Source of the DNA: an uncultured Haloferula sp.
GTDB lineage: Bacteria; Verrucomicrobiota; Verrucomicrobiia; Verrucomicrobiales; Akkermansiaceae
Reading direction: 5' to 3'
Assembly (NCBI GenBank): GCA_965652295.1
Contig: CBFGTS010000003.1
Coordinates: forward strand, 32,001-96,000
DNA: 64,000 bases
The translations under genes and the position numbers were made by a program. The notes beneath the pieces are model-generated. The model did no database searches. It was not told the DNA's origin and saw only the letters and a list, made by a program, of their open reading frames with translations. The first letter of the stretch is position 1. Each line of letters opens with the position of its first letter. Shown one piece after another: positions 41,979 to 56,094 of this stretch.

Positions 41979-42008
41979 GTCGGGATTTTTGGCGAAAACA
42001 CGCATCTC
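41979..42008 (+). promoter_or_regulatory. Putative ECF promoter, copy 1
   Basis: GTCGG-GATTTTTGGCGAAAACA-CGCATCTC (17-nt spacer), ~100 nt upstream of 42107. Confidence 0.7.
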
Positions 42009-42106
42009 GATGACGAGGCCCCATCGATCCGGCTCCGGCTCCGCAGACGAGGTCTGCCCGGCCTCACGACGCCGCGATCCGATTCGCGGGAAATCTCTCC
42101 AAACCC

Positions 42107-45100
42107 ATGCCCATTCCAGCTGTCATCCAACCCGCGGGACTCCTCCGGATCCTGGCTTTCGAACTCTTGATCGGTTCCGTCGGCGCTCAGGTCGTCCAAA
42201 CCGTGAATTCCACCGGTTCGGCCACCGCTTGGAACGGTGCCATCTGGGGAACCCCGGCGACAACGCCGACGAGTGGCAACGGCTACGCCACCGCAGCCGG
42301 TCTGATATCGCCCTCCGCCACCAACCTCGGCACGGGAACCGACGTCACCGGACGGGTGCGGGCCTACGATGAAAGCCCTGGATTCAACGGCGATGCGCTC
42401 ACCCTCGTTTCCGCGACCGAGCTGCTGCTCAAGGGAGCCGGCACGACCTACACGGCGAACCTCGTCCTGAACGGCGGCATCCTCCGCTTTTCTCCGGATG
42501 CCGGTGGCAACGTGACCTTGGCCGGCACCCTCGATGTCGCCTCGGATTCGGTGCTCGGATTGGTGCAGAGCGGCATCAGCACGTTGACGATCGGTTCCAC
42601 CCTCACCGGAAATGGCGTACTGCGCCTCGCTGCCGGTCAGAACAACGGCAACTCGCTCATTTTTGATGACGGTGCCGGGCTTTCCTTGAACGGCTTCGAA
42701 GGCACTCTCGAAATCGGCGGCGGAGCCAGCGCGGTCGTCGTTGGCTTCAACCAACCCTACGACATGAGCCTCGCCGAGGTGGCGATGGGCAGCCACTCGA
42801 CGGCCGACGTCCTGGCGCTGAACGCAGACATCACGGTGAAGTCGTTCACCTTCGGTGCCAGTGTGGTGGCACCGGGCACCTACAGCGTGGCGACGCTGAA
42901 TGCGACCTACGGAAGCGGCTCACGATTCACCGGGACCGGCTCGTTGACGGTGGGTGAGGGTGATGTCGACCCCGGGGGCGACAGCGATGGCGACGGATTG
43001 CCCAACTCGTTCGAGGATCAGATCATCAACGCGGATCCGCACGATGCGGTGGATGGCTATGAGGATGTGGCGGGACCGGAGGACGCCCCGGCCACGACCG
43101 ATTTCGACAAAGACGGACTGAGCGATGCCGATGAGTTCGTTCTGGGAACCAAGCCGGCTGATCCGGACAGCGACATGGACGGCTACGGCGATGCGGTCGA
43201 AGTCGCCGGCGCGACCGACCCGAACTCATCGATGAGCATGCCGCCGCAGGTCGCCGGCAATCCGCGCTCGCTGCCGGTGCTTTCGGCGGATGCGGTCGCG
43301 GGTGGCTTTTCCCTCGTGACGGGTGGAAACGCGGTGCCGGTGGTGTACGACGCCGCGGATGCGACGGTGGTGGAAAAGGCCGTGCTTTTGTATGCCGATG
43401 ACGTGGAGGCCGTCGGTGGCGTGCGGCCCGCGGTTTTGAACTCGGCCGACGGACTCAGCGGACCCGCGGTCCTCGTCGGCACCCTCGGCCAGAGCGCGCT
43501 GATCGACGGGTTGGTGGCTTCGGAAAAACTCGACGTTTCCGGGATCCGGGGAAGCTGGGAATCGTATCGCCTTGCCCGGGTGATCGAGCCCGTGCCGGGC
43601 ATCACCGAAGCTCTGGTCGTGGTCGGCAGCGACCGCCGGGGGACCGCCTACGGACTCGGTGCGATCAGCGAAGTCATGGGGGTTTCGCCCTGGACCTGGT
43701 GGGCCGATGTGCCACCGCCGGTGCGCCCGGAGATTCACCTGGCGGGCCTGCCGCTGGATTCGATGCCGCCCAGCGTCCGTTTCCGCGGCATCTTTATCAA
43801 CGACGAGGACTGGGGGCTGCAGGAATGGGCGGAGAAGAACTATGAGTCGGGGCCGGGCGAAGTGAAGGACATCGGGCCGAAGACCCATGCCAAGATCTTC
43901 GAGCTGCTGCTCCGCCTGCGCGCGAACTACTGTTGGCCGGGAATGCACCCGAGCACCCGCGCGTTCCACTATTACCCGGACAACAAGCAGGTGGCCGACG
44001 ATTACGCCATCGTCATGGGCAGCTCGCACGCCGAGCCGATGCTCCGCAACAACGTGGACGAGTGGGATCGATTCACCGACGACAACGGCTACTCGGACAA
44101 CTGGAACTACTCCCAAAACAAGCCCGTGATTTACGAATACTGGGATGTCAGGGCGCAGGAGGCCGGGCCGTTTGAAAATGTCTACACCATCGGCAAGCGC
44201 GGCATTCACGACTCCGGCATGGTGGAGGGCTCGAACAACACCGACAAGGCCGCCTGGCTCAACACCATCTTCGCCGACCAGCGCCAGATCCTCGCCAACC
44301 GGGTGAATGCGAACCCGGCCCGGGTGCCGCAGATTTTCGTCCCCTACAAGGAGGTGCTGAGCATCTACGACACGGGTCTGGTCAACGTTCCGGATGACGT
44401 CACGCTGGTGTGGCCGGATGACAATCACGGCTACATCCGGCGGCTTTCCAATAGCGCCGAGCAGCAGCGCTCCGGAGGCGGCGGCGTTTACTACCACCTG
44501 TCTTACTGGGGTGCACCGCAGGATTACCTCTGGCTCTCGACGATTCCGCCGTCGCTGATCTGGGAGGAAATGATGAAGGCTTATGAAAACGACTGCCACC
44601 GCTTGTGGGTCTTCAACGTCGGCGACATCAAACCGGCCGAGGTCAACATGGAGTATGCCCTGCGCCTCGCATGGAACGTTCACAGCCATGGTCCGGATTC
44701 CCAGATGAAATGGTTGAATGAATGGGCGACGCGCGAATTCGGAGCGGAGAGCGCCGGTGCCATCGCCTCGGTGATGAACGACTACTATCAACTCAACCAC
44801 GCCCGCAAACCCGAACACATGAACTGGAAGGACAGCGATGCGGGCAGCTCGGCACCTTCGGGCGCGACCTCTTACCCCTTGTTCAGCCAGGTCCACGAGG
44901 GCGATGAACTGGCGCACCGCCTCGCGGAGTTCGATGTGCTGCGGGAGCGCGCCGACCTCATTTTCGATGCGATCCCCTCTGACAAGCGCGACGCGTTCTA
45001 TCAACTCGTGGTCTATCCCGTTCGCGGGTCCGAAGCGATGAACCGCAAGGTCCTCCACACCGCGAGGGCCTACCGTGCGGTCGCCCAGAAACGCACCACC

Positions 45101-47131
45101 GCCACGCAGCATTCGTCCGCGGCGACCAGCGCCTACAACGAAATCGCCAGCGAGACCGCCTACTACAACACCACGCTGGCCTCCGGGAAATGGAACGAAA
45201 TGATGGACTGGAAGCCACGCGGACTGGCGGTCTTCAACATGCCGTCCCAGCCAACCGACCCCGGTGCGCAGTCGCTCGGACTGGGTGTGGCGGTCGAGGG
45301 CCGGCTGGAGCCGGTCTTCACCACTCCTTCGGACGGAACCTCGTCCAGCATGGAGCTTCATGCCGTGGATGATGCGGTTTCCATCCTCGCGCCGATGCAG
45401 GAGGCGACTCTGGACGGCCGCCGCTGCCTGTGGACTCCGGGAACCGGCGGTGCCGCCGCCGCTGGAGCCGGTGGACGGGCCAGCTATTCCTTCACCATCG
45501 CGGAAAGCGAAACCTACTCGATCCGCTTCGAGGTCCGCACGCCGACGGCCGACGACGACTCCTGGCATATCTCGCTCGATGGAGCCACGCCGGAAGTTTG
45601 GAACAACATCGGCATCGGCAACCCGGCTGGCTGGCGCTGGCTGACGTGGAAATCGGCGACGCTGACGGCCGGCACCCACACCCTTGTGGTCCACGAACGC
45701 GAGGACGGTGCCGCCTTCGCCGCGATCGAGATTTCAAATGCCTCCACGACGGCGGAAATGGGCGAGGACAAGCGTTTCAGCGATTTCCGCCTTCCCGAGT
45801 TCAACTCGATCACCCGCCGCGATTTCTTCATCGACCTCATCAATACCGAAGCTGGAGATCTCTCGTGGAGCGCGACGGCGGACGATCCATGGGTCGTGCT
45901 CTCCGCCACCTCCGGTTTGCTCGATACCGAGCAGCGGCTCACCGTTTCCATCGACTGGGACCAGCTTCCCGCCGACGAGTCCCTCACCTCCACGATCCAT
46001 GTGACGACGGGAGACGACACGGTGGAGATCCCCGTCACCGTCTGGAATCCGCCTTCACCGCCCGCCGTTGATTTCATCGAGGAAAATGGAGCCGTGGTCA
46101 TGGAAGCGGAACATCCCTCGGCGTCCCATGCGGGGACCGACGCCTCGTGGGTGGAGGTCCCGGATCTGGGCCGTGGAGACGGCGCGATGATCGTTCAGCC
46201 GACCACCGCCCCGAGCCTGACGACGCCCGCCGAGATCGTGGCCGACGCGCCTTCGCTGGAATTCTCGTTCCACCTCCGGACGCCCGGCACGCACTCGATC
46301 GAGGCGTTGTTCCTGCCCGCACTCTCACTGAACAACGACCGCGGCCGCCGCTATGCGGTCTCGGTGGACGGAGAAACGCCGACGATCGTCTCCCTGTCGT
46401 CCGAATCCGGCAGCGGCAACACCTGGTCGCGCTCCGTGGTGCGGTCGGCCATTTCAGGAAAATCCACCCATACGATGGCGAGTGAGGGGAACCACACCTT
46501 GAAGATTTGGATGGTTGATCCCGGCCTGGTCCTCGACCGCATCGCCGTTCTCACCAGCAGCACGCCCTATACCTACGGCGGCCTCCGTGAAACCGCGGTC
46601 GATACCACGGAAACCCTCTACGTGGCGGCAGGTGAAACCTACGTGCTGGATGGCGACAGCCGGACGTTCAAGCGGATCGTCAACCATGGGACGCTCGAAC
46701 TCCGGTCCTCGTCGCTCGTCGTGGAAGGCGAACTGATCAACTTCGGCACCCTGCGGGTGACCGGCGACTCCACGATCACGACCGGTGGCAACGTCTCGAA
46801 CTTCGGGATTCTGGATTCGATGTCGTGGCATCCGCGCGGCGTGGACGCTCTTCCCGACTATTCCGATTTCGGATCGATGATGGACAGCAGCTTCTTCCAC
46901 CTCGAAAGCCACTGGATGGCGGACGGACAGTTCCACCTCCAAGTGCCCGGATACGAGGGCCACCAGTATGCCTTGCTGCGGAATGAAACGCTGACCGCAT
47001 CCGGCTGGATGCCGGCAGGCCCGGCCAAGACCGGAAGCGGGGTTCACGGGAATCCGTCCCCCCTCACCTTCAACTGGCCGGCCGACAGTTCGCGGATGTT
47101 TTTCCGGGTGGAACTGGACGGTGACGAGTGA
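42107..47131 (+). CDS. Large secreted multidomain GH115 alpha-glucuronidase-like protein
   Basis: Passenger-like N-domain, DSDGDGL Ca-binding repeats, GSDRRGTAYG, RGIFINDEDWG, WPGMHP, GSSHAEPM, WPDDNHGY, GVYYHLSYWG, VGDIKP, MVDPGLVLDRI; ends RMFFRVE. Confidence 0.9.
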   Translation: MPIPAVIQPAGLLRILAFELLIGSVGAQVVQTVNSTGSATAWNGAIWGTPATTPTSGNGYATAAGLISPSATNLGTGTDVTGRVRAYDESPGFNGDALTLVSATELLLKGAGTTYTANLVLNGGILRFSPDAGGNVTLAGTLDVASDSVLGLVQSGISTLTIGSTLTGNGVLRLAAGQNNGNSLIFDDGAGLSLNGFEGTLEIGGGASAVVVGFNQPYDMSLAEVAMGSHSTADVLALNADITVKSFTFGASVVAPGTYSVATLNATYGSGSRFTGTGSLTVGEGDVDPGGDSDGDGLPNSFEDQIINADPHDAVDGYEDVAGPEDAPATTDFDKDGLSDADEFVLGTKPADPDSDMDGYGDAVEVAGATDPNSSMSMPPQVAGNPRSLPVLSADAVAGGFSLVTGGNAVPVVYDAADATVVEKAVLLYADDVEAVGGVRPAVLNSADGLSGPAVLVGTLGQSALIDGLVASEKLDVSGIRGSWESYRLARVIEPVPGITEALVVVGSDRRGTAYGLGAISEVMGVSPWTWWADVPPPVRPEIHLAGLPLDSMPPSVRFRGIFINDEDWGLQEWAEKNYESGPGEVKDIGPKTHAKIFELLLRLRANYCWPGMHPSTRAFHYYPDNKQVADDYAIVMGSSHAEPMLRNNVDEWDRFTDDNGYSDNWNYSQNKPVIYEYWDVRAQEAGPFENVYTIGKRGIHDSGMVEGSNNTDKAAWLNTIFADQRQILANRVNANPARVPQIFVPYKEVLSIYDTGLVNVPDDVTLVWPDDNHGYIRRLSNSAEQQRSGGGGVYYHLSYWGAPQDYLWLSTIPPSLIWEEMMKAYENDCHRLWVFNVGDIKPAEVNMEYALRLAWNVHSHGPDSQMKWLNEWATREFGAESAGAIASVMNDYYQLNHARKPEHMNWKDSDAGSSAPSGATSYPLFSQVHEGDELAHRLAEFDVLRERADLIFDAIPSDKRDAFYQLVVYPVRGSEAMNRKVLHTARAYRAVAQKRTTATQHSSAATSAYNEIASETAYYNTTLASGKWNEMMDWKPRGLAVFNMPSQPTDPGAQSLGLGVAVEGRLEPVFTTPSDGTSSSMELHAVDDAVSILAPMQEATLDGRRCLWTPGTGGAAAAGAGGRASYSFTIAESETYSIRFEVRTPTADDDSWHISLDGATPEVWNNIGIGNPAGWRWLTWKSATLTAGTHTLVVHEREDGAAFAAIEISNASTTAEMGEDKRFSDFRLPEFNSITRRDFFIDLINTEAGDLSWSATADDPWVVLSATSGLLDTEQRLTVSIDWDQLPADESLTSTIHVTTGDDTVEIPVTVWNPPSPPAVDFIEENGAVVMEAEHPSASHAGTDASWVEVPDLGRGDGAMIVQPTTAPSLTTPAEIVADAPSLEFSFHLRTPGTHSIEALFLPALSLNNDRGRRYAVSVDGETPTIVSLSSESGSGNTWSRSVVRSAISGKSTHTMASEGNHTLKIWMVDPGLVLDRIAVLTSSTPYTYGGLRETAVDTTETLYVAAGETYVLDGDSRTFKRIVNHGTLELRSSSLVVEGELINFGTLRVTGDSTITTGGNVSNFGILDSMSWHPRGVDALPDYSDFGSMMDSSFFHLESHWMADGQFHLQVPGYEGHQYALLRNETLTASGWMPAGPAKTGSGVHGNPSPLTFNWPADSSRMFFRVELDGDE

Positions 47132-47200: not shown

Positions 47201-47230
47201 GTCGGGATCTTTGCTCAAAATCCGCCCCTC
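47201..47230 (+). promoter_or_regulatory. Putative ECF promoter, copy 2
   Basis: GTCGG-GATCTTTGCTCAAAATC-CGCCCCTC (17-nt spacer). Confidence 0.72.
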
Positions 47231-47360
47231 GAATTGGGGGGTATGGCTTTTTGGTCGCCCTCTCCAGATCCGACAACGACGTCGGGAATCACCGAGATAT
47301 GCCGCCGGTGCCATCCGTGCCGGCGTCGAGCTTATTACAAACCCCAATACGAAAATCATC

Positions 47361-50126
47361 GTGGACAACCGACACCCGATTCATCTCAAGGGAGGCGTCG
47401 CCGCTTTCCTCACCACCGGTCTGCTGGCCTTCCCTGTGGCTCACGCCGCAGAGGTCGTCCAAACCGTGAACGACACCGGCACCGGCTGGAACAGCGCCCT
47501 CTGGGGTTCCCCTGCCGCGGCCCCCACGGCCGGAAACGGCTACGTGACGGCGGCCTTTGCACTCAATGACCCCAGCCGCCTGGGCACTCCCAATCTCACC
47601 GGCCGGATCCGCGCCATCACCGGCCAGGAAACTTTCACCGGCGATGCCCTCGACATCGTGCCCACCACGGAACTGCTGATCAAGAACGGGGGGACCTACA
47701 CCGCGAACATCACCCTGAATGGCGGCCTCATTCGCCATTCCCCCAATGCGGCGGCCGCCGCCACACTCACCGGCACGCTCCATGTCGCCGCAGATTCCGT
47801 TCTCGGTTCGGTGCAAAGCGGCACCCAGGTTTTCACCATCGCTTCCACCATCACCGGCAACAGCACGCTGCGCCTGGCAGGCGGGACCGCGGCCAACCAA
47901 ACGATCACCTTCGACGACGGCGCCGGAACGTCCCTCAGCGGCTTTGCCGGGACTCTGGATATCGGAGGCGGGCTGACCAATGCCGGAGCCGCCAACCTGG
48001 TCACGGTGGACTTCAACCAGCCCTATGACATGAGCGGCACCGCCGTCGTGATGGGTGGATACGCCACCGCCGACGTGCTCAATCTCGACGCGAACATCAC
48101 GGTCGAAAGTTTCACCTTCGCCGGGGCTCCGCTCGCAGGAGGCATCTACGATGTCGCGACGCTGAACGCGACCTTCGGCACCGGGACCCAATTCACCGGG
48201 ACCGGCACGCTGACGGTGACGGGTGCCATCGATTCCGATGACGACGGACTGCCCGACACGTGGGAAACGTCCTATGCCGGAAACCTGACCGATCTCGACG
48301 GCACGCTCCCCGCCGGCTCGGGGCCCGGTGCCGGGACCGGCGACTTCGACGGCGACGGCCTGAGCGACGCCGACGAACTGGCGGAATCCACGAGCCCGAT
48401 CGACCCGGACAGCGACGACGATGGACTGAACGATGGTCCGGAAATCGCTGGCACCGACAACAACGATGTCTCCCACGGCTTCGGCCCGACCGATCCGAAC
48501 CTGTTCGACAGCGATGGTGATGGGCTCGGCGACGGCGCGGAACTCGCAGGGACCGACAACGATGACGTCTCCCACGGCTTCGGTCCCACCGATCCGCTGT
48601 TCGCCGATAGTGACAACGATACGCTTGAAGACGGTGCCGAAGTGGCGGGAACCGACAACGATGGCTTCTCTCACGGCTTCGGTCCCACCAACCCCAACGA
48701 TGCCTTCAGCGACGACGACGATCTGCCGGACGACTGGGAGATCACCTTTTTTCTCAATCCGAACAGCTCCGCCGGAGACGACGGAAACGAGGGAGATCTG
48801 GATGCCGACGGACTGGACAACTTCGGCGAGTATGTCGCTTTCACCGATCCCGGGATTTCCGATACGGACGGTGACGGTTTGGAAGACGGGCCGGAAGTCA
48901 ATGGCACCCGGAATGACGGCACGGACCATGGATTCGGGCCGACCAATCCCCTGGCGATCGACACCGACGGTGACGGCTTCGATGACTGGTTCGAGCTTGA
49001 GCTGGCGACCGATCCGAATGACTCCAACAGCCTGCCCGGAACCGCCGCACCCATCGTCAACGGTGGCTTTGAAAGCCCGCCGGTGGCGGTCTCGACCGAG
49101 GCCGTCCCGGTCTCCAGCGGCACCGTGCCCGGTTGGACGGTGGTGACGAACGACTTCTACGTGACCGATTTTCTCCCCGCCGGTTTGGGTACCGGAAACC
49201 CGGGGGCTCCGAGCGAGGGTGCCCAGTTCGCGACCGCCGAGCGCCGCGCGCCCAATCCTCCTGTGGAGGCCGCATCGTTGGACGGAGGCACCGCCGCGAC
49301 CATGAGCATGCGCCAGGACATCGACATGTCCTCGCTCTCCACCGAAATTGATGCCGGCGCCCGCAGCCTGCTGTTGAGTTTCGATTTTTTCGACAACGAC
49401 GCGGCCGACGAGGGTGTCGTGACGATGCAGTTCCTTGATGGATCGAACAACGATCTGGGCCGGCGGGTCGTCTACCGCTCCCCCGCCACGACCAGCGCGG
49501 CCTGGCAGGCGGGCAATCTCACAGGCTATCCTCCCGTCGGAACCCGGACCGTCCGTTTGACTGTCGAAACGATCCTCGTCGGCGAAGGTTCGGCACGGAA
49601 CTTCGCGATCGATAACATGCGGGCCCGTTTGTTCCACTTCGACGCCGACAACGATGACATGCCCGACGACTGGGAGTTGGCGAACGGGCTCGACACGACC
49701 GTCGATGATTCCGGTGACCATTGGGATGGCGACACGCTGACCAATCTGGAGGAGTTTCAGAACGGCACCGATCCGAACTGGGAGGACACCGATGGAGATG
49801 GTCACAACGACGATGTGGAAATCGCGGCGGGCTCCGATCCACTGGACGCTTCGAGCATCCCGGGCGGGGCCTCCGCCGGTGTCAGTGTCGTCAGCACGGA
49901 CGTCACCACGAACGGCAGCGGTCAGGTCACCCAGGTCCAGATCACCTTCAGTGGCCTGGATACCAGCAAGAGCTACACCCTCCTGCGCGGCATCGACCTC
50001 GTCACCTTTCCGGACACCGTGGACACCCACCAGCCCTCTGCCGAAACAGAGGCATTCACCGACTCCTCGCCGGTGCCGCAGGCGACCTCCGGCAAGGCAT
50101 TCTACATCCTCGAAGAGACGCCATAA
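47361..50126 (+). CDS. Secreted acidic surface protein with TSP3-like Ca-binding repeats and a galactose-binding-like domain
   Basis: Signal peptide to AHA-A; N-domain paralogous to the 42107 protein; many DxDxDGLxD repeats; VNGGFE...GWTV...IDN domain; start chosen at GTG 47361. Confidence 0.85.
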   Translation: MDNRHPIHLKGGVAAFLTTGLLAFPVAHAAEVVQTVNDTGTGWNSALWGSPAAAPTAGNGYVTAAFALNDPSRLGTPNLTGRIRAITGQETFTGDALDIVPTTELLIKNGGTYTANITLNGGLIRHSPNAAAAATLTGTLHVAADSVLGSVQSGTQVFTIASTITGNSTLRLAGGTAANQTITFDDGAGTSLSGFAGTLDIGGGLTNAGAANLVTVDFNQPYDMSGTAVVMGGYATADVLNLDANITVESFTFAGAPLAGGIYDVATLNATFGTGTQFTGTGTLTVTGAIDSDDDGLPDTWETSYAGNLTDLDGTLPAGSGPGAGTGDFDGDGLSDADELAESTSPIDPDSDDDGLNDGPEIAGTDNNDVSHGFGPTDPNLFDSDGDGLGDGAELAGTDNDDVSHGFGPTDPLFADSDNDTLEDGAEVAGTDNDGFSHGFGPTNPNDAFSDDDDLPDDWEITFFLNPNSSAGDDGNEGDLDADGLDNFGEYVAFTDPGISDTDGDGLEDGPEVNGTRNDGTDHGFGPTNPLAIDTDGDGFDDWFELELATDPNDSNSLPGTAAPIVNGGFESPPVAVSTEAVPVSSGTVPGWTVVTNDFYVTDFLPAGLGTGNPGAPSEGAQFATAERRAPNPPVEAASLDGGTAATMSMRQDIDMSSLSTEIDAGARSLLLSFDFFDNDAADEGVVTMQFLDGSNNDLGRRVVYRSPATTSAAWQAGNLTGYPPVGTRTVRLTVETILVGEGSARNFAIDNMRARLFHFDADNDDMPDDWELANGLDTTVDDSGDHWDGDTLTNLEEFQNGTDPNWEDTDGDGHNDDVEIAAGSDPLDASSIPGGASAGVSVVSTDVTTNGSGQVTQVQITFSGLDTSKSYTLLRGIDLVTFPDTVDTHQPSAETEAFTDSSPVPQATSGKAFYILEETP
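48408..48704 (+). repeat. Three in-frame tandem 99-bp (33-aa) repeats
   Basis: DSDxDxLxDGxExAGTDNxxxSHGFGPTxP units starting 48408, 48507, 48606; a fourth related unit at ~48861. Confidence 0.85.
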
Positions 50127-50314
50127 GGTCTCGCGGCCGCAAGGTCTGTTGAATCCAGGGGCGGCTTCGGATTACCGGAGCCGCCCCGATTCTTTGGTCC
50201 AGGATTAGCCGACAAGAGGATCCCGGAAGGCTGGCACCTGCTGGCGGTTGCGAACACGATGCCCCGGCCGGGAGGCACGCCCGAAAGCGCAGCCCCACGG
50301 CCATCCGGCAGAAC

Positions 50315-50346
50315 AAAAACAACGCCACCCAAAAGGGTGGCGTTGT
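50315..50346 (-). terminator. Rho-independent terminator of the PEP-CTERM gene
   Basis: ACAACGCCACCC-AAAA-GGGTGGCGTTGT with A tract on the left (T tract on minus strand). Confidence 0.75.
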
Positions 50347-50393
50347 GGAAAATCGATCATCCGGGAACGCCGGCGGTCCCCGTCGAATGGAGA

Positions 50394-51272
50394 TCAGGCT
50401 CCGCGCCGACGGCGCAGCAGACCGAACATGCCGAGACCGCCGAAAAGGGCGACCGAGGCTTCAGGAACGGCGATGGCGGCAAAATGCGCACCTACCTGAC
50501 TTTCGGTAAGAACCGAATCGTACATCGAGAACTCGTCGATCGTGCCGGGAAAGAAGGAACCGACCGTCCCCCGGACGTTTCGCGCGCCGAGGGTGGGAGC
50601 GAAGCCGAAGTCCGCGAAATTGGTGGGAGCATCGCTATCCACATAGGTGATCGTTTGCGCGACACCGTCGACATACGCCGTGACCCGATTGACGGAATCA
50701 TAGGTCAAAACCAGTTGGTGGAAACCTCCGTCGAACAAGCTGGCGTTCGTGAAGGTGGCGCCAAGGTCGGTGCCAGCTTCGTTTCGGATGTAAAGGCGGA
50801 CGCCGTTGGTCAATGTGGCATTACCCACGCCATTTTCATTGAGAACAATATCGATGGCGGTGGTCGAACCGGTGTTGTAGGTGCCAAAGAGTCTTACGCG
50901 GGCATTCGACGTGGTGCTGAAAACGAACTCGTAGCTCGAACCGTCCAGAGACGATCCGAAGCTCGTGGCATTGGTGGTCGCAACATAGTCGTTGGTCCCG
51001 TCGAAGCCCACGGCGGTATCGCCAAGGATTGCAGCACCGGGCTGCCCGAGCGTCGGGCTGTTGGTGTAGGTGCCCGTCCGGCTGTTTCCCGATGTGTCGG
51101 TAGCGCTCGTGCCTGAGGATTCGCCCAGTCGGTAGTAAAGGTAGGGGTTGTCGGCGAGGACGGCGGTTTGGTAGGCCGTGGTCGCGGCGTGAGCCGCCGG
51201 CAGGGCCAGGAATCCGAGGGTGAGGGCGGTTACGGCACCTCCGAGGCCTCGTTTGTTGCGTGATTTGTCCAT
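50394..51272 (-). CDS. LamG-domain PEP-CTERM surface protein
   Basis: Signal peptide; YYRLGESSG, FDGTNDYV, HQLVLTYD, YVDG, GTIDEFSMY; C-terminal VPEASVALFGGLGMFGLLRRRR. Confidence 0.93.
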   Translation of the reverse strand: MDKSRNKRGLGGAVTALTLGFLALPAAHAATTAYQTAVLADNPYLYYRLGESSGTSATDTSGNSRTGTYTNSPTLGQPGAAILGDTAVGFDGTNDYVATTNATSFGSSLDGSSYEFVFSTTSNARVRLFGTYNTGSTTAIDIVLNENGVGNATLTNGVRLYIRNEAGTDLGATFTNASLFDGGFHQLVLTYDSVNRVTAYVDGVAQTITYVDSDAPTNFADFGFAPTLGARNVRGTVGSFFPGTIDEFSMYDSVLTESQVGAHFAAIAVPEASVALFGGLGMFGLLRRRRGA

Positions 51273-51400
51273 GATGGTTGTGTTGTTTTCAGGTTTGGGT
51301 TTTCGAGCTGGATCGCCCAGACGAGCTGAGGACGGCGACCGATCTCGATCTTCCGGGGGATCGGGAGACATGCTTCGGGGAAACAAGTCTCCTTCAACCT

Positions 51401-51430
51401 GAGGGGCGGATTTTCGCCCGAAATACCGAC
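51401..51430 (-). promoter_or_regulatory. Putative ECF promoter, copy 3
   Basis: Minus strand GTCGG-TATTTCGGGCGAAAATC-CGCCCCTC (17-nt spacer). Confidence 0.72.
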
Positions 51431-51626
51431 GGAGTTTTTTCCGAAAAACCCACGACCGGGGAAACGCGCCGTTGATGGAGGCTCAGGCGGCAGCCCGGAT
51501 CGAGATTCAGGTTGAAAACCCTGCGATCCATCTTCTTCATCCATGCGTGCCGGACGAAAGTTGCCGCGACATGCCACCTGAGAAGAGCATGGGGCGCTGG
51601 CATGAATCCGGTTGCGTTGCCCGTCC

Positions 51627-52192
51627 GTGAACGAAATCCGAAAAATCCTGGAATCCTCCACCCAGTCCAGCAGCCGGGCTTCGGCGGAACTGCTGCCTCT
51701 GGTCTACGATGAATTGCGGGCCTTGGCGGCAAGGCGTCTGAACGACGAGAAGGACCCGCAGAGCCTGCAGGCCACCGCGTTGGTTCACGAGGCATGGCTC
51801 TCGCTCGCAGGCGACGACGAACGGTCATGGGACAACCGCCGTCATTTTTTTCGAGCTGCGGCCAAGGCGATGCGCAACATCATGGTGGATCGGGCCCGGG
51901 CCAAGGACTGCCAGAAGCGGGGAAACCGACCGGAGATCGTCGACATCGAGAAGCTCGACATCGCGGATGCCTCCATCGATGAGCGGGTCCTGTTGGTGGA
52001 CGAAATGTTGACCCGGATGGAATCGACGGACCCCGAGAGCGTGCGGGTGACGACGCTCAAATTTTTCGGCGGTCTCACCAACCGGGAGATCGCGGAAATG
52101 GACGGCGTGACCGAAAGGACGGTCGAACGCAACTGGGCCTACGCGAGAGCAAAACTCCTTCGGATGATCCGCAAGGAAACCGCCGACGAGGA

Positions 52193-52196
<4 letters not shown>
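51627..52196 (+). CDS. ECF sigma factor, TIGR02999/ECF43-like
   Basis: LLPLVYDELRALA, LQATALVHEAWL, FFRAAAKAMRNIMVD, KRG, LKFFGGLT.REIA, TVERNWAYAR. Confidence 0.93.
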
Positions 52197-54430
<2,234 letters not shown>

Positions 54431-54444
54431 TCGTCATTTTTCCT

Positions 54445-54474
54445 GTCGGGAATCCGCCCGGATTTCCGCCCTTT
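54445..54474 (+). promoter_or_regulatory. Putative ECF promoter, copy 4
   Basis: GTCGG-GAATCCGCCCGGATTTC-CGCCCTTT (17-nt spacer), 15 nt after the kinase stop. Confidence 0.65.
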
Positions 54475-54479
54475 GAATG

Positions 54480-54619
54480 TGGAAGGTTCGAGCTCGAACC
54501 TCATCCTGTGTCTTCCCGCTGTGACTGCTGTTCGAACATCGTTTGGGTTTATCGATGGACGACAGGTTGCAACCGGCTCGCGGCTGGAGCGATTTGGGGT
54601 CGCTCCAGCCGCTTTCATT
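54480..54619 (+). ncRNA. Putative ECF-driven G-loop small RNA
   Basis: Between promoter copy 4 and hairpin GCGGCTGGAGCGA-TTTGGGG-TCGCTCCAGCCGC-TTTCATT; internal CATCG-TTTGGGTTTAT-CGATG hairpin; no convincing ORF. Confidence 0.5.
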
Positions 54620-54866
54620 CCGGCGGGTGAAGCCGGATCCCGCTGCCTTTTCCCCAGTCAGAGCCGGCAGGAAACGTTGCGCGTCGAAACTTCCACCGCC
54701 GTCCTCGCATTCGTCGTTAAGTTCGGAGGCCTCCGGGCTATTGTAGGTTGTTTGAACCCATGATGTCTCCGGTTTGCTCTCAGGTGCTCGTGTCACCCCC
54801 CGCCTTGGCTCGTGCCACGGCTCCATCGTCCGAGGTCCGGAGCAGAACCGCCACCCGTCGCCACTC

Positions 54867-55943
54867 ATGAGGCCCAACCCCGAACCGCGGCGCGTCAGCC
54901 TCCGCGACATCGGTCAGAGACTGGGCGTGAGTCACACCACCGTCTCGCTGGCGCTGAAGGATGATCTCCGGATCACCACCAGCGTGCGTCAGCTCGTGAA
55001 AGCCACCGCCGAGGAGATGGGCTACCGGCCGGATCCGATGCTGTCAGCGCTCGCCACCTACCGGCGGAACCGCAGCGGTCTCCCGATGAGTGCCGGCATC
55101 GCATGGATCAACGCGTGGCAGGATCCCGACGCCCTCCGGCGCTACCGGGAGTTCGACTGCTATTGGCGGGGTGCCGAAAGGGCGGCGGAAAAGTTCGGTT
55201 ACCGTCTTGAGGAATTCCGCGCCGGCGCGGATTGTTCGCCCGCCCGTCTCCACCAGATCCTGCACACCCGCGGTATCCGTGGCATCCTGCTCCCCCCTCA
55301 CAGCGATCCGCCGTCGTGGAAGAATTTTCCGTGGGAGCACTACTCGGTGGTCCGCTACGGCCGGTCCATGCCCCACCCGCCATTTCACGTCATCACGGCG
55401 GATCAGGTGCTCAACACGATGCTCGCCTTCCGGAAAATCCGCGAGCGCGGCTACGAAAGGATCGGCTTCGTCGACTGCCGCGAGGCGACCGTGAAGCCCG
55501 GTCACCTGTTCCTGGCCGGTTTCCTGAGCGCCCGGACGGCGTTGGATCAGACGATGAGGGTCCCGGTCCTCAACCTGAGCCTCACGCGAAATTCCGGACG
55601 CGCCGCGCAACTCGCGGCGTGGGTGAAGAAGCATCGAGTCGAGGCCATCCTTACGAGTTTCAACGAACTCCCCGCGATTCTGGCCAAAGCGGGACTCCGC
55701 GTGCCGGACGATGTCGCCCTGGCCGGCACCACCGTCCTCGACACTCCCATTTCAGCGGGCATCGACCAGCATCCGGAAGAAATCGGACGCGTCGGCTTCC
55801 TGCTTCTCCACTCCCTCATCAACGACCGCGACACCGGGATCCCCACGATCTACCGCCAGTCGCTGATCGAGGGCTCATGGGTGGATGGTGACTCGCTTCC
55901 CCATCGAACCCATGCTGGTCACGACGCGGCTTCGGCCGAGTAG
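54867..55943 (+). CDS. LacI-family transcriptional regulator
   Basis: SLRDIGQRLGVSHTTVSLALK, MGYRPDPMLSAL, GYERIGF, VPDDVAL. Confidence 0.92.
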   Translation: MRPNPEPRRVSLRDIGQRLGVSHTTVSLALKDDLRITTSVRQLVKATAEEMGYRPDPMLSALATYRRNRSGLPMSAGIAWINAWQDPDALRRYREFDCYWRGAERAAEKFGYRLEEFRAGADCSPARLHQILHTRGIRGILLPPHSDPPSWKNFPWEHYSVVRYGRSMPHPPFHVITADQVLNTMLAFRKIRERGYERIGFVDCREATVKPGHLFLAGFLSARTALDQTMRVPVLNLSLTRNSGRAAQLAAWVKKHRVEAILTSFNELPAILAKAGLRVPDDVALAGTTVLDTPISAGIDQHPEEIGRVGFLLLHSLINDRDTGIPTIYRQSLIEGSWVDGDSLPHRTHAGHDAASAE

Positions 55944-56094
55944 GCGGAATAGCCGCTGCGGTGGTAGGAACGAAGCCGGTAGCGCTTCACGGGGCAGGTG
56001 TCTCCTCGTCAGCGTCCGCTCCGCTGCGCAGGCCCCTCGAAGGGCATCATCTGCTTCTTCGATCGCCTTTGGAAAGGATCACCCGGCCGGACCT

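Follow-up and report, generated by a model that had tools for sequence, protein, structure and literature searches.

A candidate small regulatory RNA with a conserved G-rich loop behind an ECF sigma factor and kinase gene pair of an uncultured Haloferula

Small RNAs (sRNAs) that depend on the extracytoplasmic function (ECF) sigma factor sigma-E are established in E. coli and Salmonella (MicA, RybB and MicL) and in Vibrio (MicV) (PMC4102768, PMC6694218), and the sRNA GcvB is described as silencing the C/A-rich translation elements of many mRNAs by means of a G/U-rich seed (PMC3879156). ECF sigma factors paired with Ser/Thr kinases are known as groups ECF43 and ECF59-62 (PMC7826278) and from EcfK/PknS (PMC13147305), and the portions of these two papers available to us mention no RNA gene in the corresponding regulons. 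Akkermansia is listed among 'SD-scarce' organisms (SD, Shine-Dalgarno; PMC10783764), and translation start without Shine-Dalgarno sites is poorly understood in Verrucomicrobiota. Our literature searches, which covered portions of the sources, returned nothing on sRNAs of Akkermansia or Luteolibacter, nor on RNA genes in ECF/kinase regulons, and found no experimentally studied regulatory RNA in Verrucomicrobiota. Here we analyze a 64,000-nt stretch of the genome of an uncultured Haloferula sp. (GCA_965652295.1, contig CBFGTS010000003.1, positions 32,001 to 96,000; hereafter the window), in which a unit of ~140 nt behind an ECF sigma factor and kinase gene pair is, on balance, likely to be a small regulatory RNA that pairs through its UUUGGGUUU loop with C/A-rich (AAACCCA-type) mRNA leaders. 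This assessment rests on the conservation of the unit, the covariation of its stems, its lack of a coding signal and its complementarity to leaders.

The locus begins with an ECF sigma factor gene (51612–52196, +; TIGR02999 Sig-70_X6, 187 bits against a cut-off of 126; Pfam PF07638, 7.5e-47), classed here by TIGR02999 and PF07638. It directly overlaps, by 4 nt and with no anti-sigma gene between, the gene of a Hanks-type Ser/Thr protein kinase of 745 aa (52193–54430, +; Pkinase, 1.6e-44). Beginning 14 nt past the kinase stop codon (TGA, 54428–54430) there is an ECF-type promoter motif (predicted; 54444–54469, +), composed of TGTCGG (-35, 54444–54449), a 17-nt spacer and CGC (-10, 54467–54469), which would work as a promoter. 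The predicted non-coding transcript behind it (54477–54619, +, ~140 nt) has both ends placed from the promoter spacing and the terminator. Its predicted fold has a 5' hairpin with the core GGUUCGAGCUCGAACC (54481–54506, +), whose sequence varies between species, followed by the G-loop hairpin that we propose as the seed (54537–54557, +), in which a 5-bp stem CAUCG/CGAUG (54537–54541 and 54553–54557) presents the 11-nt loop UUUGGGUUUAU (54542–54552). Because this loop starts at 54542, the 10-mer GTTTGGGTTT (54541–54550) singled out in the initial annotation takes in the closing G of the stem. Last comes a 13-bp terminator hairpin (54580–54619, +) with arms at 54580–54592 and 54600–54612, the loop TTTGGGG (54593–54599) and a weak tail, TTTCATT (54613–54619).

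The terminator hairpin was the top-scoring terminator-like site in our terminator scan, and the region 54476–54625 folds at -63.3 kcal/mol (z = -3.54), with none of 200 shuffles as stable; in this fold, pairing leaves only 3 nt of the TTTGGGG loop open. The candidate RNA is free of Rfam matches at E ≤ 10 (50000–56000 scanned). We also considered, and rejected, a small protein: the four open reading frames (ORFs) that overlap the candidate (54473–54763, +; 54289–54630, +; 54403–54618, -; 54434–54910, -) all have negative coding scores (-0.12 to -0.31 log-odds per codon; GC3 0.56–0.66), compared with +0.26 to +0.27 and a GC3 near 0.8 for the flanking genes. Pfam gave no match for the three that were scanned (54473–54763, 54403–54618 and 54434–54910), and the short ATG frames within the unit differ between species, with no ORF common to the relatives. 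At the level of sequence, a promoter motif and a terminator enclose a short non-coding stretch, as in a gene of its own. The features listed in the initial annotation, namely the promoter motif, the G-loop hairpin, the 13-bp terminator and three exact complementary sites, are all present where it had placed them, and its view that no credible ORF follows this fourth copy of the motif agrees with the coding scores, the Pfam scan and the lack of an ORF shared by relatives.

A BLASTN search with the 436-nt intergenic region matched none of 40 relatives, and we traced the family by synteny instead. The best kinase homologues in three relatives (G050, G048 and G023) are followed by the same motif, ~140 nt without an ORF, a G-loop hairpin and a terminator, so the proposal of a discrete non-coding unit with its own ECF-type promoter motif and terminator was borne out by comparison, as far as sequence can bear on it. 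Hairpin loops in these copies read AUUUUGGGUUUU and UUUUGGGUUUCU, with UUGGGUUA plus CGGGUUA in G050, and the terminator stem GCGGCUGG...CCAGCCGC recurs. The initial annotation had expected both G-rich loops to be conserved behind homologous ECF/kinase loci. The first, of the UUGGGUU type, is kept in all three copies found by synteny alone; for the terminator loop the expectation failed, since the stem GCGGCUGGAGC...GCUCCAGCCGC is kept in relatives and the sequence of its loop is not. The terminator loop (TTTGGGG), unconserved and closed to 3 nt in the predicted fold, was accordingly dropped as a seed.

Pattern and model searches added copies in G016, L075, L077, L083 and L106 and a truncated duplicate in G050, and collection scans added a promoter-less copy in L096. 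The unit (TGTCGG-N17-CG(C/T), ~150 nt, UUGGGUU hairpin and terminator) recurs in eight other genomes or contigs, all from Luteolibacter-like Verrucomicrobiota, probably Luteolibacter. Two collection scans returned 33 loci, nine of which are members or duplicates (L075, L077, L079, L083, L089, L095, L096, L102 and L106); the other 24 were set aside as chance matches, since they lacked both a promoter at the family spacing and a conserved middle region and lay mostly in coding context. TGTCGG-N17-CG[CT], which the search pattern did not demand, is present in four of the five new scan loci (L075, L077, L083, L096 and L106). The pattern TTTGGGTTT-N25-45-GCGGCKGG proved unspecific by itself, with 10 matches in 151 family genomes against 16 for the reversed control; three of the 10 are real (G023, G016 and the window's own genome, G000).

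We aligned ten copies, nine of them promoter-bearing (alignment A6). All nine have TGTCGG and CG[CT] at equivalent positions, and all ten have TTGGGTT, although the searches behind six of these rows had TTGGGTT or TTTGGGTTT as a fixed part; the scan patterns left the promoter motif, the hairpin stems and the middle region free. A four-helix structure, drawn from one member (G048) and biased in its favor relative to slid controls, pairs 82.3% of the cells, compared with 39–55% when partners are slid by 1–3 columns. Both partners change in fifteen pairs, compared with 7.9 ± 1.9 in shuffles, none of 500 of which reached 15. The G-loop helix (helix 3) is 88.9% paired, both partners having changed in four of its six pairs; pairing in the terminator helix is 96.6%, with eight of 13 pairs invariant, partly since the search pattern fixed them. 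Helix 1, the 5' hairpin, is just 61.6% paired and so weakly aligned. When folded alone, six of seven G-loop hairpins expose a loop of 10–12 nt.

With the model R2, the unit family was found in seven of 35 genus genomes at E ≤ 0.01, the E-values of the covariance models used being rough: as stand-alone forms in G000, G016, G023, G048 and G050 and as forms at the 3' end of a gene in G010 and G020. Under stricter filters, R2 matched three of 151 sampled family genomes, all of this genus, and none of the 135 of other genera. A second R2 match in G000 (C10:119534) was discarded as a plain terminator behind another gene. By tblastn, a kinase gene lies upstream in six of the nine collection-scan loci (L075, L079, L083, L089, L102 and L106). 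The L077 copy, with its own promoter, instead follows a GFO_IDH_MocA oxidoreductase gene, and the promoter-less copy in L096 begins right past the stop codon of such a gene, in its 3' untranslated region (UTR). These oxidoreductase contexts indicate that the unit is a gene of its own rather than a constant component of the kinase operon. G050 has a duplication of the unit together with the TGTCGG promoter behind it, on two contigs (L071:3400-4434 and L074:5531), and on C71 the second promoter is followed by a gene for a NarL/FixJ-type response regulator, a third TGTCGG promoter and a gene of >1,158 aa.

The window's own genome (4.4 Mb) encodes 14 paralogues of this Ser/Thr kinase type. Behind six of the 11 inspected, the stop codon is followed by TGTCGG-N17-CG(C/T) and then by a gene for a product with a signal-peptide-like N-terminus, from which we take this motif to be the usual output promoter of the kinase modules; at the window's kinase locus, the motif holds that position without any gene behind it. 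The arrangement suggests that the kinase/ECF pairs make up an extensive, modular set of switches controlling secreted or surface proteins. In a tree of kinase C-terminal regions (27 rows), the unit-linked kinases fall in two of the three sub-clades of one clade (support 100/99), requiring three gains or losses of the RNA unit, and two of 500 label shuffles did as well. Judged from this tree, the link between the unit and this kinase clade is real, not strict.

The promoter motif also precedes three other genes in the window: a LamG/PEP-CTERM gene divergent from the sigma factor gene (50394–51272, -; motif at 51406–51430, -), a GH115 gene (42107–47131; motif at 41979–42003, +) and a gene at 47361–50126 (motif at 47201–47225, +). 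The LamG protein has a LamG domain, a signal peptide and a VPEAS-hydrophobic-RRRR tail at its C-terminus, reminiscent of a PEP-CTERM sorting signal. Over an N-terminal region of ~370 aa, the GH115 protein is 53% identical to the 921-aa product of 47361–50126; the two also have the promoter motif in common and may be paralogous outputs of one sigma factor. The initial annotation had named GTCGG-N17-CGC as the shared motif; in that bare form it is at chance in the window (11 found against 11.47 expected, with at least 11 in 53 of 100 shuffles), and what holds is that the four named sites are alike over a longer stretch, AAAATCCGCCCCTC being common to the sites at 47201 and 51430 (-). Genome-wide, TGTCGG-N17-CG[CT] occurs 28 times between genes and 67 times in coding sequence, a ratio of 0.42 compared with 0.24–0.29 for controls and 0.19 for TGTCGG alone.

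Start regions in G000, predicted from 2,977 genes called with a crude self-trained model, are G-poor, C/A-rich and poor in Shine-Dalgarno words, with a strong preference for C at -1 and -2. The most enriched hexamer at -30 to -1 is AACCCA (73 found against 11.1 expected), with related C/A words next, while Shine-Dalgarno words are depleted before starts (GGAGGA at 0.47x); 41 genes begin with AACCC-ATG. Signal-peptide-like N-termini are found in 56 of 107 products with an AACCCA start region versus 711 of 2,849 others (odds ratio 3.3). The UUGGGUU loop is the exact antisense of this top hexamer, and targets are probably broad as AACCCA is the word most enriched before starts. The caution in the initial annotation that C/A-rich leaders are common was well placed.

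Three leaders had been proposed as targets, and a ranking of leaders as the check. The best candidate is AAACCCAAAC in the LamG leader (51293–51302, -), 21–30 nt upstream of the ATG and in a C/A-rich part that the predicted leader fold leaves unpaired; it is the sole 10-nt match to the loop-1 probe and the longest among 2,975 start regions. By duplex energy with a loop-only probe, this leader ranks 19th of 2,966, and fourth among the top 150, for which alone target accessibility was added. Scoring of full-length RNA–RNA duplexes was abandoned, as it returned unrealistically long duplexes (-60 kcal/mol). The claim did not extend to the other two genes. The 7-nt match AAACCCA at GH115 (42101–42107), whose final A is the A of the ATG, ranks 696th of 2,966 (shuffle P(≥7 nt) = 0.039), and ACCCCAA (47341–47347), a 7-nt match to loop 2 upstream of gene 47361, ranks 1,547th. 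Matches of at least 7 nt are found in 109 of 2,975 start regions for loop 1 and in 88 for loop 2, and genes with the promoter motif are not enriched for them (4/59 versus 105/2,916). On complementarity, the G-loop suits a broad type of leader and not a regulon of its own, and one of the three proposed pairings stands out.

Several observations weigh against the reading of the unit as a pairing RNA of this regulon. The promoter motif is only ~2-fold enriched between genes genome-wide, and with 14 paralogous kinase pairs the promoter of the candidate RNA may be read by any of several sigma factors. Six of the ten rows of A6 were found by pattern, which for five of them also fixed most of the terminator stem, so that the conservation of loop and terminator stem in these loci is partly by construction. 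Terminator U-tails are weak or missing (UUUCAUU in G000; none in G016 or G050), and read-through is thus possible. Start-region statistics carry the error of the crude gene calls, and the LamG 10-mer is only moderately unlikely: dinucleotide shuffles of the leader give P(≥10 nt) = 0.00185, and when the loop is permuted, a 10-nt match to any of the three leaders arises in 1.6% of trials (P = 0.016). The matches at GH115 and at gene 47361, two of the three proposed targets, are at chance level. In the relatives, LamG leaders adjoining the unit match their respective loops over 7–9 nt, a length that is not exceptional against dinucleotide shuffles of these leaders (P = 0.07–0.42), and specific pairing with co-regulated genes is therefore not corroborated. 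Finally, a second TGTCGG promoter and a LamG gene come immediately after the unit in G048, G016, L106 and L083, an order that would also suit a role in cis.

Such a role would make the unit a leader or attenuator of the following LamG gene, acting either by conditional read-through of the terminator or by pairing of the G-loop with an AAACCCA start region on the same transcript. The spacing in the four genomes or contigs just named (40–110 nt), the AAACCCA-type motifs in the LamG leaders there and the lack of a U-tract in several terminators are all in keeping with it. A cis element should always be directly upstream of, and co-oriented with, the gene that it controls, and this fails in G000, L075, L077 and L096. 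In G000, the next gene 3' of the candidate encodes a LacI-type regulator (54867–55943), 245 nt away and with no motif of the kind seen before these LamG genes. The next gene in L077 is a convergent integrase gene, L075 has no LamG gene or promoter behind the unit and the promoter-less copy in L096 sits in the 3' UTR of an oxidoreductase gene. Moreover, the downstream LamG genes own separate promoters. We consider action in cis unlikely.

The same loop recurs in other RNA candidates of this genome. A second, unannotated sRNA candidate of ~90 nt, outside the window (G000:C8:18121-18221, +; L118:222-322), combines a sigma-70-like promoter (TTGACG-N17-TATAGC) with a long stem, capped by the loop UUUUGGGUUUUU, and a terminator with a U-run, and folds with z = -4.4. 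By BLASTN it is present in 34 of the 35 genomes of the genus; within the family it occurs in 54 of 151 sampled genomes and five of 20 genera, with up to four copies per genome. Its GGG-centered loop core UGGGUUUUU is unchanged in all 12 and in all seven aligned homologues, with slight variation only in the U-run 5' of the core, and its inner stem covaries. Since both RNA candidates carry the same loop, the loop appears to be the conserved functional element rather than any one RNA. We noted two more U-rich GGG-loop hairpins with the loop UUUUUGGGUUUU (G000:C8:48405-48445, +; G000:C11:129868-129925, +), one terminator-like behind an 809-aa ORF and the other between a 609-aa ORF and the next gene. 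Rfam gave no match for the second candidate nor for the other G-loop hairpins.

Modules of a G-loop hairpin and a terminator were also seen right past stop codons in four relatives (G016:C32:479042-479158, -; G020:C45:3219-3332; G007:C91:5787-5876, -; G050:C217:6281-6367); these appear orthologous, with the loop UGAUGGGUUC. A further module (G010:C314:2063-2178), with the loop UUUUGGGUUUUU, lies behind a PEP-CTERM-like gene, and all five look like 3'-UTR forms of the same module. In G000, TTGGGTT is not enriched in hairpin loops on 5-bp stems (6.5% versus ~9% for 7-mers of the same composition) and is only ~2-fold enriched on stems of at least 7 bp, so that the loop motif represents a small family and not a genome-wide repeat.

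A loop of this constancy could also be the site of an RNA-binding protein, or part of a sponge by which the RNA titrates another RNA. Pairing with varied leaders would not call for anything near such constancy, and the loop is identical in the family-wide second candidate and also occurs in the two further gene-adjoining hairpins of G000. Set against this, no gene was found for Hfq (PF17209, 0 matches, with control genomes detected), ProQ or CsrA in a genome that is 98% complete, no candidate binding protein is known, and a protein site leaves unexplained why the loop is exactly antisense to the top start-region hexamer. We regard a protein-binding or sponge RNA as quite improbable. Even less credible is that the G000 copy is a functionless remnant, be it the decaying promoter and leader of a lost LamG gene or a mere terminator of the kinase operon: its middle region is the most diverged in A6, no LamG gene lies behind it and its kinase falls outside the sub-clade of most unit-linked kinases, yet nothing is broken in its promoter motif, G-loop hairpin or terminator, its R2 score is 81.8 bits and G050, the closest relative by kinase, keeps the unit, even in two copies.

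For the small pairing RNA that we favor, we infer a mechanism that includes its transcription, its dependence on a sigma factor, its action in trans and the direction of regulation. The Ser/Thr kinase would activate its partner ECF sigma factor of the TIGR02999 type, or a paralogue, which would initiate transcription ~7–9 nt past the CGC at 54467–54469. The hairpin at 54580–54612 would end transcription, yielding an RNA of ~140 nt whose 11-nt loop would pair with unstructured leaders that lack Shine-Dalgarno sites, the AAACCCAAAC site of the LamG/PEP-CTERM gene being the best candidate. Given that the searches for Hfq, ProQ and CsrA genes came up empty, the exposed loop would initiate pairing unaided by these chaperones. 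Most likely it would lower translation by covering the C/A-rich initiation element. With the sigma factor driving both the RNA and its target, the circuit would be an incoherent feed-forward loop.

More tentatively, UUGGGUU might be the shared seed of an Hfq-independent layer of sRNAs in the family, 'anti-start-site' regulators of the secretome into which kinase signaling would feed. The sigma-70-driven RNA, found in at least five genera and often in several copies, would then be the core RNA and the ECF/kinase-driven RNA its inducible copy, with a seed antisense to AACCC-AUG, the main start signature lacking a Shine-Dalgarno site, which is enriched on secreted-protein mRNAs.

Should the RNA prove real, it would offer a first handle on post-transcriptional control in the phylum, supply one of the many ECF/Ser-Thr kinase modules with an output that can be read, and tie a conserved RNA loop, in a testable way, to the AACCCA start signature of genes for secreted proteins. 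Both ECF-driven sRNAs and G/U-rich seeds against C/A-rich leaders are already known, so the advance would be one of family and setting and not of principle, and the statement in the initial annotation that no equivalent had been described has to be withdrawn in view of the sigma-E-dependent sRNAs and GcvB.

Like the sigma-E sRNAs, the candidate would be transcribed from an ECF-sigma promoter as part of the sigma response; like MicL, its unit starts inside or behind another gene, and the two G-loop RNAs share a seed, as do MicV and RybB. It has no sequence or Rfam match to these RNAs, and its sigma factor is partnered by a Ser/Thr kinase, whereas sigma-E is held by an anti-sigma factor. sRNAs of the MicA, RybB and MicL type depend on Hfq, for which no gene was found here, and the sigma-E sRNAs repress abundant outer-membrane proteins that are not themselves induced by sigma-E. 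The window module matches ECF43, ECF59-62 and EcfK/PknS in having an ECF gene followed by a kinase gene with no anti-sigma gene, and the candidate RNA follows such a pair.

GcvB resembles the candidate in directing a single-stranded G/U-rich seed, its R1 region, against C/A-rich translation-enhancing elements in or upstream of ribosome-binding sites, elements that were reportedly the subject of a 2007 paper. Its seed is linear, Hfq-dependent and at work in a host that uses Shine-Dalgarno sites, whereas the candidate would present its seed in a hairpin loop; the two have no homology, and in contrast to the setting of GcvB, start regions of this genome seem to have the C/A-rich motif as their main signature. 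RsaE and LhrC of Firmicutes have C-rich (UCCC) loop seeds and need no Hfq. As proposed for the candidate, they pair a short conserved loop motif with the translation start, and several RNAs per genome share the motif. The polarity is mirrored: C-rich loops meet G-rich Shine-Dalgarno sequences in RsaE and LhrC, and in the candidate G-rich loops would meet C-rich sites without Shine-Dalgarno sequences.

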